From: Escherichia coli
GTDB lineage: Bacteria > Pseudomonadota > Gammaproteobacteria > Enterobacterales > Enterobacteriaceae
Strand: one strand, 5' to 3'
NCBI RefSeq assembly: GCF_050920415.1
Contig: NZ_CP169309.1
DNA: 64,000 nucleotides
Position numbers and translations under genes: made by a program. Under the pieces are notes generated by a model. The model searched no databases. It was not told where the DNA came from and was given only the letters and a program-made list of their open reading frames with translations. This document shows, piece after piece, positions 18,699 through 53,795 of this stretch. Numbering within the stretch: position 1 is the first letter of the stretch; each line of letters starts with the position of its first letter.

Positions 18699-18785
18699 GC
18701 CCGGATGGTGGAATCGGTAGACACAAGGGATTTAAAATCCCTCGGCGTTCGCGCTGTGCGGGTTCAAGTCCCGCTCCGGGTACCA
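18699..18785 (+). tRNA. leuZ: tRNA-Leu(UAA), intact copy at the prophage left junction
   Basis: 87 nt, GCCCGGATGGTGGAATCGGTAGACACAAGGGATTTAAAATCCC..GGGTACCA, with a long variable arm. Confidence 0.95.
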
Positions 18786-18855
18786 TGGGAAAGATAAGAA
18801 TAAAATCAAAGCAATAAGCAGTGTCGTGAAACCACCTTCGGGTGGTTTTTTTGTA
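18731..18855 (+). repeat. attL: left copy of the 125-bp direct repeat (3' 55 nt of leuZ plus 70 bp downstream including the terminator)
   Basis: Base-for-base identical to 53671-53795 on manual comparison. Identity starts at TTTAAAATCC in the anticodon loop and ends at ..TTTTTTTGTA. Confidence 0.95.
18829..18853 (+). terminator. rho-independent terminator of the glyW-cysT-leuZ operon (inside the att repeat)
   Basis: ACCACC-TTCG-GGTGGT hairpin plus T7. Confidence 0.85.
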
Positions 18856-50607: not shown

Positions 50608-50811
50608 TTAGCTGTTAGCCAAAGCGTCTTTTAACATCGCCACAAGGTTTACTTCAGGCTTTTCCATTTTGGCGCGTTTGGGGCGGATAATAATTCGACC
50701 GTCAGCCAACATCTTTTTGCATGTATTAAGAGGGATACCTGTTATCTCTGCATATTTCTGCAGGGATACATAGGGGGCATTCACATTGATATTGATGGTT
50801 ATACCTGACAT
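50608..50811 (-). CDS. Cox/excisionase-like HTH protein
   Basis: 67 aa, ..YVSLQKYAEITGIPLNTCKKMLADGRI.. Second gene of the lytic operon, as for P2 cox / 186 apl. Confidence 0.6.
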   Translation of the reverse strand: MSGITININVNAPYVSLQKYAEITGIPLNTCKKMLADGRIIIRPKRAKMEKPEVNLVAMLKDALANS

Positions 50812-50827
50812 CCCACTAGCCTCCTGA

Positions 50828-51034
50828 TCAGGAAGATTTGTTTTGTTCTTTCTGGGTTAGCTCTAGGCCGCGAAGGAAGATCATGCGCGCCATGTTAGAG
50901 GATGAGCGTTGTTCTTTAGCTGCCATTTCATCAATGACGGCTCGCTCCTCGAGGGACAGCCGAAGTGCCAGTCTTGGACCTGTGGCGGTGTTACGCGGAA
51001 TGCGTGATCTGGTATCGTGAAGAACTTGTTTCAT
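50828..51034 (-). CDS. ribbon-helix-helix (Arc/CopG-like) protein, first gene of the lytic operon
   Basis: 68 aa, ..RLALRLSLEERAVIDEMAAKEQRSSSNMARMIFLRGL.. Confidence 0.6.
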   Translation of the reverse strand: MKQVLHDTRSRIPRNTATGPRLALRLSLEERAVIDEMAAKEQRSSSNMARMIFLRGLELTQKEQNKSS

Positions 51035-51071
51035 AGTGGTATATTGTGATCATCTAATAGCTCGTGAAATC

Positions 51072-51100
51072 ATTTTGGTATCAAAAAAGATACCTGTCAA
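51072..51100 (-). promoter_or_regulatory. early lytic promoter with an operator palindrome in its spacer
   Basis: The minus strand reads TTGACA-GGTATCTTTTTTGATAC-CAAAAT. The 18-bp palindrome GGTATC-N6-GATACC (51077-51094) fills the -35/-10 spacer. Confidence 0.6.
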
Positions 51101-51109
51101 GGTTTTTGT

Positions 51110-51514
51110 ATGAAAAATGATATTGGTCAGCGGTTGCGTGAGGAAAGGGAAAGATTGGGACTTAGTCAAGTTGCCATGAGCGACATTGGTGGAGTCAAAA
51201 AGCTAACTCAGCTTAGATATGAGAAAGGAGATAGCTTTCCTGATGCTGCGTATTTGGCAGCGCTGTCTCGTTTTGGCCTTGATGTTCAGTATGTTGTGTT
51301 GGGAATTCACTCACCTGAAACTTATAACGATGATGAGCAGGAGTTGATTACTCGCTTTCGAGCAGCTTCGTTAGATGTGAAAAACGCGGTGATTGGGGCT
51401 TTAAAAGGTGCGATCAGTGAAAAGGAAACTCAGCCATCAGGACGTGAGTTAAATATTTCTGGTGGTAATAACCGTATTGCTGGTCGTGACTATAACGAAA
51501 CTAAGGGTAGGTGA
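51110..51514 (+). CDS. XRE/CI-type HTH immunity repressor
   Basis: 134 aa, MKNDIGQRLREERERLGLSQVAMSDIGGVKKLTQLRYEKGDSFPDAAYL.. Divergent from the lytic operon. Confidence 0.8.
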   Translation: MKNDIGQRLREERERLGLSQVAMSDIGGVKKLTQLRYEKGDSFPDAAYLAALSRFGLDVQYVVLGIHSPETYNDDEQELITRFRAASLDVKNAVIGALKGAISEKETQPSGRELNISGGNNRIAGRDYNETKGR

Positions 51515-51529
51515 TAGTAGGGAGGTGAC

Positions 51530-52180
51530 ATGGCCGTCAACTCAAACGGTTCAAACAATCGCGTTGCTGGGCGTGATTTTCACGAAAAGAATATTCAGAT
51601 AGAGCGATATGATGGTTCTCATACCGTCAATATCGCAATCCCTTCGAATAATGATGATGACGATCGCCCTTTGCTTAAGGCTCAGCGTAAGGAGCTAAAT
51701 AGTTTGGTTGCTGCTATTGCAGAAGCTAGCAATACTGAAGCGTTTATTATTTGGCAAAAAGTACATGCTGAGATTGGTGTAGCTGGTATTGATGATATGA
51801 CAGTAAATCAATATAAAACAGCGGAGAGTTTTCTGCATGCAATGCTTGAGCGATGTAAAGATCATGATGCCTGTAAGGCTCTTGTAAGTTTATTACTACG
51901 TAACAGTGAAGACTGTGGACTTCGACAAAAACTTCTGCGGTATTGCCATATCAATTTCGGTACAGGACGTTTAAACGATCTTACTCGTTCTCAGTTACAG
52001 TCTGCATTGTCGTGGTTAGAGCAACAATCGGCATCAAGCCACACAGAGAGTTCGACCTTACCAGAAGTCCGACTTCGTGCTTCAGAATTAATCCGACTTT
52101 ATCCAAAAGAAATAATATTCTTTATCTGCGTAGGGGGTTTGGTAGGCGGTGTCATTTCTAGGGTGCTTTTTAATTTGTAA
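51530..52180 (+). CDS. C-terminally membrane-anchored protein of unknown function, co-transcribed with the repressor
   Basis: 216 aa with a C-terminal TM helix IIFFICVGGLVGGVISRVLF. The N-terminus shares the NNR(I/V)AGRD(Y/F)xE motif with the repressor C-terminus. Confidence 0.65.
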   Translation: MAVNSNGSNNRVAGRDFHEKNIQIERYDGSHTVNIAIPSNNDDDDRPLLKAQRKELNSLVAAIAEASNTEAFIIWQKVHAEIGVAGIDDMTVNQYKTAESFLHAMLERCKDHDACKALVSLLLRNSEDCGLRQKLLRYCHINFGTGRLNDLTRSQLQSALSWLEQQSASSHTESSTLPEVRLRASELIRLYPKEIIFFICVGGLVGGVISRVLFNL

Positions 52181-52209
52181 TCTTACTTGAGCTAAATTGA
52201 GGTAATGAT

Positions 52210-52557
52210 ATGAAAGTAAAAAAGGTTCAACTATTAGTTACTTTTTTATCTATGTTTTCTTTTTCCGCCGTCGCAATGCCTTTTAAAACTATTGAACGTG
52301 AGAGTTTCAATGGGGTATGGCCATTTAATACTGATGAGGTTCAATTACAGTGTCTTGATGGTAATCCTTATGTGATGAATTTTGACGATAATAAGTTATA
52401 TGCACTTACAGGTTTGGCTCGAATAAAAGGTAAAACATTTGGTGCGTTACCGTTAGATAACAATAATCCATTTTGGCTAGATAATGATGCCGCCCCAGGG
52501 TTAAAAAAGAGTCTGGGGGATGTCACTAAGGCTGCATTTGATTTATGTGATAAGTAA
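52210..52557 (+). CDS. YebY-like (DUF2511) periplasmic protein
   Basis: 115 aa with a signal peptide. The W.FN..EV.L.C and C-terminal Cys pattern matches E. coli YebY. Confidence 0.65.
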   Translation: MKVKKVQLLVTFLSMFSFSAVAMPFKTIERESFNGVWPFNTDEVQLQCLDGNPYVMNFDDNKLYALTGLARIKGKTFGALPLDNNNPFWLDNDAAPGLKKSLGDVTKAAFDLCDK

Positions 52558-52562
52558 CTAAA

Positions 52563-53564
52563 ATGTCGGTTCGTAAGATTCCATCAGGTAAATGGCTTTG
52601 CGAATGTTATCCCTACGGGGCATCGGGAAAACGCATTCGTAAACAGTTTGCGACAAAAAGTGAGGCGCTCTCTTATGAGCGCCGTTTAATGAATAGTAGA
52701 GTTGGAGACGAGTTTCAAGATGGTTCTGGTCCTCGTCTTTCTGAGTTGATTGCTCGTTGGTTTGAGATGTACGGTAAAACCTTGTCCTCTGGTGCAGAGC
52801 GCAAAGTCAAACTTGAGGCGATTTGTTCCAGGCTGGGAGATCCATTTGCTTCTCAGTTTGACAAAAATATGTTTGCTACTTATCGGGAAAGAAGGCTATC
52901 AGGAGAATGGAATCCCAAGGGGAAGAAAAAACTTAGTGAAGCAACCGTTAATCGCGAGCAGTCATATCTACATGCTGTTTTTGCCGAACTGAAGCGCCTT
53001 GGGGAGTGGTCTGGTGAAAACCCCCTGACTGGTATTCGCAAGTTTCGTGAGGAAGAAAAGGAACTGGCGTTTCTGTATGTAGATGAGATTGAACGCCTTC
53101 TGATTGCGTGTGATGAGTCACGGAATAAAGATTTGGGGGTTGTTGTCCGTATTGGGCTTGCGACTGGTGCTCGGTGGAGTGAAGCAGAAGGATTAAAGCA
53201 ATCTCAAGTACTGCCCGGTCGAATCACATTTGTTAAAACTAAAGGAAAGAAGAACCGCACTGTACCGATTTCACCTCAATTGCAGGCTATGCTTCCTAAA
53301 AAACGAGGAGCGCTATTTTCACCATGTTATGAGGCTTTTGACGCTGCAATTAAGAGAGCGAAGATCGAGCTTCCTGATGGGCAATTAACTCATGTGCTAC
53401 GTCACACGTTTGCCAGTCATTTTATGATGCGGGGCGGAAATATTCTTGTGTTGCAAAAAATACTGGGGCATAGCGATATAAAAATGACTATGCGTTATGC
53501 GCATTTTGCTCCAGGTCATTTAGAGGCTGCTGTTGAATTGAACCCTTTTGACAATAGAGGGTAA
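52563..53564 (+). CDS. int: tyrosine integrase (P2-type)
   Basis: 333 aa, ..HVLRHTFASHFMMRGGNILVLQKILGHSDIKMTMRYAHF.. (R..HxxR..Y catalytic box). Confidence 0.92.
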   Translation: MSVRKIPSGKWLCECYPYGASGKRIRKQFATKSEALSYERRLMNSRVGDEFQDGSGPRLSELIARWFEMYGKTLSSGAERKVKLEAICSRLGDPFASQFDKNMFATYRERRLSGEWNPKGKKKLSEATVNREQSYLHAVFAELKRLGEWSGENPLTGIRKFREEEKELAFLYVDEIERLLIACDESRNKDLGVVVRIGLATGARWSEAEGLKQSQVLPGRITFVKTKGKKNRTVPISPQLQAMLPKKRGALFSPCYEAFDAAIKRAKIELPDGQLTHVLRHTFASHFMMRGGNILVLQKILGHSDIKMTMRYAHFAPGHLEAAVELNPFDNRG

Positions 53565-53670: not shown

Positions 53671-53725
53671 TTTAAAATCCCTCGGCGTTCGCGCTGTGCG
53701 GGTTCAAGTCCCGCTCCGGGTACCA
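53671..53725 (+). pseudogene. displaced 3' fragment of leuZ (55 nt, no 5' half)
   Basis: Starts in the anticodon loop (TTTAAAATCCC..) and ends GGGTACCA. Confidence 0.9.
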
Positions 53726-53795
53726 TGGGAAAGATAAGAATAAAATCAAAGCAATAAGCAGTGTCGTGAAACCACCTTCGGGTGGTTTTTTTGTA
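53671..53795 (+). repeat. attR: right copy of the 125-bp direct repeat
   Basis: Identical to 18731-18855. Confidence 0.95.

Follow-up and report, generated by a model that had tools for sequence, protein, structure and literature searches.

This work concerns two adjacent genes at the right end of a P2-like prophage of about 35 kb in the Escherichia coli chromosome, carried on a stretch of 64,000 nucleotides (nt) of contig NZ_CP169309.1, which is referred to below as the window. The first gene encodes a candidate immunity repressor of 134 amino acids (aa), and the second, an open reading frame (ORF) termed ORF216, encodes a membrane-tethered protein of 216 aa, called here the partner. The C-terminal tail of the repressor and the N-terminal head of ORF216 share a motif of 16 residues, and related pairs of genes in other prophages carry matching tails and heads. 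On balance, we consider it probable from comparison of these sequences that the two genes form a conserved control module, in which the repressor is coupled to a membrane-anchored input protein through pairing termini. No description of such a module was found in the open-access literature searched.

P2-like and Mu-like phage groups are classically not inducible by ultraviolet irradiation or the SOS response. Little is understood of how such prophages exit lysogeny when RecA does not mediate cleavage of the repressor, and the module described here is a candidate route. It is also common, occurring in about 10% of complete E. coli genomes and in prophages of several other genera. If the terminal peptides do pair, the logic of matched terminal motifs, so far known only for amyloid signalling in cell-death immunity systems, would reach viral transcriptional control.

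The motif shared by repressor tail and partner head

The repressor closes with the motif NISGGNNRIAGRDYNE, followed by the basic end TKGR, while the head of ORF216 carries NSNGSNNRVAGRDFHE. Identity between the two extends to 10 of 16 residues, rather than the 11 counted in an earlier sequence-only reading of this DNA, and the underlying nucleotides are identical at 30 of 48 positions (62.5%, where about 65% had been given), with the same codon used at only four of the ten shared residues. Such divergence of codons and nucleotides led us to reject a recent duplication or gene conversion as the source of the motif, and it supports the earlier view that the match is one of protein and not a recent copy of DNA. 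Among the 260 mechanically called ORFs of the window that reach 60 aa or more, repressor and ORF216 aside, the best other 16-residue match to the repressor motif reaches 7 of 16. Re-reading of the sequence bore out the coordinates and translations reported before, as well as the spacing of 15 nt between the genes. This spacer holds a strong Shine-Dalgarno-like site; at some other loci, the genes overlap by 1-4 nt. Although repressor and ORF216 share a reading frame in the window, a read-through fusion of the two was rejected, because three consecutive in-frame stop codons (51512-51520) stand between them and the frames differ at other loci, such as L003.

The arrangement is not restricted to the window. 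In nine other Enterobacterales species, arc and cox lie on one strand, and the genes for the repressor, the partner, a variable slot and the integrase (int) follow one another on the other strand; the repressor/partner pairing is conserved in all nine. Prophages with the module were also found in Klebsiella, Salmonella, Serratia, Yersinia, Pectobacterium, Gilliamella and Pseudomonas, and in most cases examined, the downstream protein starts with a matching variant of the motif. The tail ..SGxGNR[VIA]AGRD[FY]NENKK is nearly invariant in repressors that are only 35-60% identical overall to the repressor of the window, and repressor homologues bear several different tails rich in glycine and asparagine (G/N-rich), each closing in a basic cluster. 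The sequence-only reading had named absence of the motif from homologues as a sign against its proposal. Instead, the homologues of ORF216 among the matches listed, at least 120 from Escherichia, Klebsiella, Serratia, Erwinia, Raoultella, Enterobacter and others, all keep the head motif.

From one motif class to another, tail and head mostly change together. In Mu-like prophages, the repressor tail ..QIFNGDISGQFAGNQIINN of Pectobacterium is followed by the head MRQEFNGTAQGQFSSRDIINI, the tail ..GEGQIAGGNIYTT of Gilliamella by the head ..TAEQIAGRDIYNI, and the tail ..QQFNGPVGTVTSGDVVNH of Pseudomonas aeruginosa by the head MANQQFHDRVHQVAAGDIKNF. Co-varying pairs also occur in the metagenomic viral contigs L053 (tail ..QVFNSKVSGQVSAENIYNF, head MEQNFYGQVDQVAANNIYNI), L080 (tail ..QVFHGAVSGGVAARDIINN, head MQEFQGNVDGGVAGRDIVNQ) and L082 (tail ..LNFNGPVGTAFSGDATI, head ..LNFHAPVEYAAGGDVKI), as well as in L058, L062, L067 and L084. 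When nine motif classes were compared, the cognate pair scored best in its row for six of the nine and in its column for seven (permutation p = 2e-5), and for 39 of 50 unique tails, none of 300 shuffles equalled the match to the region downstream of the tail itself. Some loci appeared to have no partner; four of these (L056, L084, L088 and L093) proved to be misses in ORF calling, and at L040 the contig ends just after the start of the partner.

The motif is, moreover, almost exclusive to these two places in viral contigs. The DNA pattern for NR[VI]AGRD[FY]xE matched 155 times, in 118 viral contigs, and 154 of the matches belong to a repressor tail or a partner head: 69 close repressor homologues, 78 lie at the N-terminus of proteins with the Flk_N domain that is also present in ORF216, six are scored as internal in such proteins and are probably start-codon artefacts, and one is at the N-terminus of a partner with a zinc ribbon and a transmembrane (TM) segment. 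The remaining match is unrelated. No third motif-bearing protein, such as an antirepressor, was found among the ORFs of the window or in the 118 viral loci. Finally, in a related P2-like prophage that occupies this chromosomal site, the repressor is tail-less and a motif-bearing partner is absent. Conservation, co-variation, near-exclusive position and joint absence give strong comparative support to the earlier proposal that the shared motif marks a functional link between the repressor and its membrane partner.

The bodies that carry the head vary. Some partners are tail-anchored Flk_N proteins, some are bitopic, with a coiled coil, one TM segment and a Cys-containing C-terminal domain, some are small proteins with two TM segments, and some combine a zinc ribbon with a TM segment; all forms are membrane proteins. 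Since the head is also found on two-TM, zinc-ribbon and bitopic partners without Flk_N, the common denominators are the motif and the membrane anchor, and, judged by this distribution, the Flk_N domain is not the receptor of the motif. In the bitopic class, represented by L067, L080, L081, L082 and L090, the matching head is followed by a Flk_N-like segment, a long coiled coil and one TM segment. The conserved C-terminal domain of this class, about 60 aa long (C.F.G..Y..G..I...C....W), ends in basic residues and has no Pfam match; it looks like an extracytoplasmic sensor domain.

Two variants of the locus may be added. At L214 (3357-4132), the tail-less repressor relative is followed by a zinc-ribbon-like protein of 117 aa and a coiled-coil, tail-anchored protein of 140 aa without a G/N-rich head; by eye, genes resembling these occupy the variable slot of L010. 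At L216 (767-2801), from Salmonella enterica, three tandem repressor paralogues precede a single Flk_N partner; two of them end in ..GNRVAGRDYNEKK, and the third, next to the partner, has lost the motif core (..NISDTGNNENK).

Properties of the two proteins

The repressor matches the Pfam families HTH_31, HTH_19 and HTH_3 with E values of 8e-5 to 1e-3, all under the gathering score, and the family phrog_8, 'transcriptional regulator', with E = 2.5e-14; NCBIfam matches, to RstR and DicA, are weak. The AlphaFold2 (AF2) model contains a five-helix helix-turn-helix (HTH) domain at residues 5-64, with a predicted local distance difference test (pLDDT) score of about 88, two further helices at residues 74-85 and 88-101, and a disordered tail at residues 105-134, within which the motif scores below 50. 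Together, phrog_8, Pfam and AF2 identify an XRE-type HTH domain. The gene is also placed as expected of an immunity repressor, divergent from an early operon for Arc-like and Cox-like proteins, as are C of P2 and c of Mu, and its position is the same in the nine species. In Mu-like prophages, repressor homologues adjoin a small gene in the position of Ner and transposition genes with rve and AAA_22 domains.

ORF216 had been described in the sequence-only reading as an unknown protein, but it belongs to the Pfam Flk_N family and is a paralogue of the flagellar regulator Flk. It matches phrog_5825 over its full length (E = 2e-102), its residues 37-166 align with positions 20-149 of the NCBIfam profile Flk NF007987 (E = 8.3e-16), and its homologues carry Pfam PF27202 (Flk_N), so that the presence of a Flk_N domain is clear. 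It is not an equivalent of Flk, as it scores 58.2 bits against a cut-off of 353, covers 130 of 339 profile positions and is only 216 aa long. In the AF2 model (mean pLDDT 78), a disordered head of about 40 residues, with pLDDT below 50 for residues 1-27, precedes a confident helical domain at residues 46-174, a variable linker and a TM helix at residues 192-215. This helix, together with the sequence itself and the hydrophobic C-terminus kept in homologues, bears out the C-terminal TM anchor claimed before. ORF216 shares the C-terminal membrane anchor with Flk, and its N-terminus has no signal peptide; the predicted topology places the body in the cytoplasm, as in Flk, and the anchor in the inner membrane.

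A profile search separates Flk_N proteins into two groups. The first consists of chromosomal Flk proteins of about 280-490 aa with proline-rich N-termini and without the motif, and the second of proteins of about 185-230 aa with a G/N-rich motif at the start and a hydrophobic C-terminus resembling a tail anchor. Chromosomal Flk and the phage Flk_N proteins may have a common ancestor. Natural HTH-Flk_N fusions were absent from the 120 repressor homologues listed and from 138 Flk_N cluster representatives. A fold search with ORF216 returned only generic similarity to small helical bundles and no mechanistic information.

Residues 49-108 of ORF216 weakly match the PHROG family 'anti-repressor Ant' (phrog_245, E = 0.004), and in the proteins P0347 (270 aa) and P0373 (210 aa), the stretch that follows a Phage_pRha (Rha regulatory protein) domain is matched by the initial half of the Flk_N profile. 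These similarities hint that part of Flk_N is a module in common with phage regulatory and antirepressor proteins. Several public annotations name phage-type Flk_N proteins, including those of Klebsiella pneumoniae, 'flagella biosynthesis regulator', which is probably an over-annotation derived from the partial match to Flk.

Proposed coupling and competing explanations

In the proposed mechanism, the first gene would supply the immunity repressor, composed of an XRE HTH domain, two helices and a disordered G/N-rich tail with a basic end, and the second, co-transcribed gene would supply a linked protein that faces the cytoplasm, is anchored in the inner membrane and bears the motif of the tail in its head. 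Homotypic recognition between the disordered termini would proceed through pairing of beta-strands or through co-assembly, and the membrane partner could then capture, cluster or release the repressor. The partner would serve as the input device and the repressor as the constant output: a changed state of the partner would titrate or inactivate the repressor, and the early promoter would be derepressed. The outcome would be an SOS-independent route of induction, or tuned immunity, in P2-like and Mu-like phages. We infer both the physical pairing of tail and head and the direction of signalling with its effect on lysogeny; as the partner bodies vary like input domains while the repressor is constant, signalling from partner to repressor is favoured.

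Several points weigh against this coupling. Both proteins are expressed from one operon, which would make constitutive sequestration pointless, so that a regulatory input must be assumed. Under ungapped scoring, the pairs at L011, L081, L083, L090 and L094/L095 are weak or without a match; the match at L083 is weak (5 of 300 shuffles), and at L094/L095 no match is present. The core of the NRxAGRD class has one variable position, at which tail and head agree in 24 cases where 21.5 are expected (p = 0.26), so that no co-variation is seen there and specificity, if any, would lie between classes; many heteroimmune repressors share one motif class. The counts given above ignore kinship and, with related loci among them, overstate the number of independent events.

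Amyloid-like signalling would be a specific form of the same model, in which the head of a clustered partner nucleates a cross-beta fold and templates the repressor tail into an inactive polymer. We regard this as doubtful, although the formal likeness is considerable. The pairs Bab/Agp, NLR/Bell and NWD2/HET-S signal by amyloid-templated conversion of the partner, and the pair with the bacterial amyloid signalling sequence (BASS) BASS11, Bab/Agp, works in an E. coli prophage defence island. The genomic signature of the module is the one that led to the discovery of BASS: two neighbouring, collinear genes overlap or lie very close together, and a motif of 15 aa or more (here 16, with 10 identical) both closes the product of the first gene and opens that of the second; amyloid pairs, including fungal HET-S/NWD2, likewise show several co-varying motif classes and variable, input-like downstream domains. 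The motifs of both are rich in G and N and poor in K, P and L: in the module, G, N, Q, V and I make up a fraction of 0.47 of tails and 0.40 of heads against 0.29 of the rest, and K, P and L 0.04 and 0.07 against 0.21. Regularly spaced Gly and Asn residues and disordered monomer models also fit an amyloid motif.

The same comparison yields the objections. The enrichment comes from G and N and does not extend to Q, charged residues (R, R, D, E) are dense in the core, and the shared segment is short, at about 16-20 aa. Neither protein matches a Pfam amyloid-motif family at E <= 0.1. In amyloid pairs, the upstream product is a membrane-attacking death effector of the Bell or HeLo kind and the downstream product an NLR/STAND or TPR-PIN sensor, whereas the window pair consists of a DNA-binding immunity repressor and a small membrane-anchored Flk_N protein; amyloid pairs are sited in defence islands, whereas the module sits at the core lysis-lysogeny switch. 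A HET-s-like internal pseudo-repeat in the head of ORF216 was considered and rejected as unsupported (z = 0.6); it appears weakly in a few relatives. If the motif did form fibrils and template its partner, this would be the first amyloid control of a transcription factor and of the lysis-lysogeny decision, a self-amplifying, SOS-independent switch driven from the envelope.

A different proposal, which we consider improbable, is that the motif is a recognition tag shared by both proteins for a third factor, such as ClpXP, Lon or FtsH, and that the partner is a membrane competitor or co-substrate that sets the turnover of the repressor. The motifs do lie at the extreme termini, the usual places of degrons, and in the repressor the motif is followed by a basic end. 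In phage Mu, the C-terminal tail of the repressor governs its degradation by ClpXP. The CII protein of phage 186 is reported to be degraded by FtsH and RseP (PMC7708051). A conserved host factor would, however, be expected to fix the motif, and repressor and partner diversify in step into many motif classes instead; the same sequence would have to act as both an N-terminal and a C-terminal tag, and no third motif-bearing family was found in the 118 viral loci.

The partner could also be a superinfection-exclusion or abortive-infection effector for which the repressor acts as sensor through the shared motif. Lysogenic operons often carry exclusion and moron genes, and the partner gene does lie in one; every partner is a membrane protein, and in Bab/Agp the membrane-acting protein is the effector. 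Nevertheless, this reading seems to us very unlikely. In known motif pairs, the effector carries the C-terminal motif and is encoded by the upstream gene, which is the place of the repressor here; a soluble helical domain held by one tail anchor does not resemble a pore former; and the partner bodies vary like sensor domains next to a constant repressor. PADLOC gave no match for ORF216 or the downstream exported protein and only weak, HTH-level matches of the repressor to RmrA, which offers no specific support for defence; assignment to a defence system was therefore rejected.

The last explanation, that ORF216 is a phage-borne Flk acting on the secretion switch of the host flagellar type III apparatus as a case of lysogenic conversion, with the motif incidental or a relic of fission or duplication, draws on the Flk_N domain and tail anchor common to both proteins, on the role of Flk, which is anchored by its C-terminus and inhibits the secretion-specificity switch from the cytoplasm, and on the database name 'flagella biosynthesis regulator' of some homologues, but it is highly improbable, given the score of 58 bits against the 353-bit equivalog cut-off, the missing C-terminal half of Flk, the lack of the head motif in chromosomal Flk, the same head on non-Flk_N partners, protein-level conservation with divergent codons, which argues against a relic or recombination linker, and the abundance of homologues in the non-flagellate Klebsiella pneumoniae (P0097 on 754 contigs), which speaks against a flagellar role.

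The proposed coupling of the repressor to a membrane-anchored input protein can be set beside known systems. Flk (Fluke, RflH) of Salmonella and E. coli resembles ORF216 in its Flk_N helical domain, C-terminal anchor and cytoplasmic bulk, but it is about 333 aa long and lacks a head matching a repressor; ORF216 is phage-encoded and always follows a repressor gene. The Tum protein of phage 186 and the epsilon protein of P4, the latter directed at P2 C, act as antirepressors. Qtip of vibriophage VP882 is described as an antirepressor that sequesters its repressor (bioRxiv 10.1101/2019.12.16.877910). Like these, ORF216 is a small phage protein that would control a repressor post-translationally, without RecA cleavage. 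Unlike them, it has a membrane anchor, is co-transcribed with the repressor as part of the lysogenic operon and bears the terminal motif of the repressor, whereas Qtip, Tum and epsilon are soluble proteins whose transcription awaits an inducing signal and which have no sequence in common with their repressors. In function, soluble antirepressors such as Qtip come closest to the module, and the nearest formal analogue is Bab/Agp with its BASS logic. The immunity region of P2 has the same layout: the promoter Pc serves C and int, with int as the last gene of the repressor operon, and cox is transcribed divergently; as noted earlier, P2 has C directly followed by int. P2 C has 99 aa and no G/N-rich tail, while the module has a different, XRE-type repressor and an inserted partner gene with a variable slot.

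The prophage, its switch region and the variable gene slot

The features of the region are collected in Table 1. The prophage is bounded by an exact direct repeat of 125 bp, the left copy of which takes in the 3' half of tRNA-Leu(taa), and it is integrated at this tRNA gene beside yecA. The repeat, which spans the 3' half of tRNA-Leu(taa) and about 70 bp downstream with a terminator-like hairpin, is unusually long for an attachment core. To the right of the prophage lie yecA and then, on the minus strand, an ORF for a multi-span membrane protein of 403 aa, which we take from the E. coli map to be tyrP.

Table 1. Positions in the window of the module, its neighbours and the prophage boundaries
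Feature	Position	Strand	Basis or content
Direct repeat of 125 bp, left prophage boundary	18731-18855		sequence
Start of divergent early operon	50608-51034	-	Arc-like and Cox-like genes
Cox-like excisionase/repressor	50608-50811	-	phrog_575, E = 1e-27
Arc-like ribbon-helix-helix protein	50828-51034	-	phrog_3431, E = 1e-28
Switch region	51035-51109	between divergent operons	promoter, palindrome, repeats
Immunity-repressor candidate, XRE-type HTH, 134 aa	51110-51514	+	Pfam, PHROG, AF2
Repressor C-terminal tail motif, then TKGR	51452-51499	+	translation
Repressor-ORF216 junction	51512-51529	+	in-frame stops TGA TAG TAG, then GGGAGGTGAC (Shine-Dalgarno-like), ATG
ORF216, membrane-tethered partner, 216 aa	51530-52180	+	phrog_5825, Flk NF007987, AF2
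ORF216 head motif	51539-51586	+	translation
Flk_N helical domain, residues 46-174	51665-52051	+	AF2, profile
C-terminal TM tail anchor, residues 192-215	52103-52174	+	stretch EIIFFICVGGLVGGVISRVLFNL; AF2 helix
DUF2511 (YebY-like) exported protein	52210-52557	+	Pfam DUF2511, phrog_2950
Tyrosine integrase, last gene of the lysogenic operon	52563-53564	+	Pfam Int_N, Phage_integrase
Direct repeat of 125 bp, right prophage boundary	53671-53795	+	sequence

Escherichia phage 520873 (Peduoviridae, Xuanwuvirus) shares 97.7% identity with the stretch from nt 51000 to 52600. Of 5426 complete E. coli genomes, 520 contain the region, many O157:H7 strains among them, and in 478 its identity is at least 99%. 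In the record of phage 520873 (L001, NC_049344; 3530-5556), ORF216, the DUF2511 gene and int are each broken across several frames; the record gives no annotation for the first two and lists int as two coding sequences. The split frames reflect either sequencing errors or a decayed prophage.

The lysogenic operon runs on the plus strand from the repressor through ORF216 and the DUF2511 gene to int, an order that had been read correctly from the sequence and is now confirmed by Pfam matches. A scan of the four genes revealed no terminator-like site on the plus strand between repressor and int. The integrase is 73-77% identical across all related loci, and the Arc-like/Cox-like layout of the early operon recurs in L002-L010. 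In the switch region between the two operons lies a leftward sigma-70-like promoter, TTGACA-17-CAAAAT (51100 to 51072, with TTGACA at 51100-51095), the spacer of which contains a perfect palindrome, GGTATC-N6-GATACC (51077-51094), and TGGTAT(C) repeats occur at 51010, 51036 and 51076. Going by their sequence and position, the palindrome and repeats are candidate operators for the repressor or for the Arc-like and Cox-like proteins, and control of the early promoter by the repressor would act through these candidate sites.

The DUF2511 protein scores 28.4 bits against a cut-off of 21, over the full profile (residues 28-113), and has a signal-like N-terminus, which identifies it as a DUF2511 protein. 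Its gene, which the sequence-only reading had grouped with the repressor and ORF216, was found only in the window, L001 and L002, and other species hold unrelated genes or nothing between partner and int. As the slot is variable, the DUF2511 gene is cargo and does not belong to the conserved module. In the Mu-like Gilliamella loci L011, L014 and L015, the partner gene is followed by one for a small protein that resembles a lipoprotein, with a signal sequence ending in Cys. Several cargo slots, with DUF2511 in the window as one case, hold envelope proteins, and other loci carry cytoplasmic cargo.

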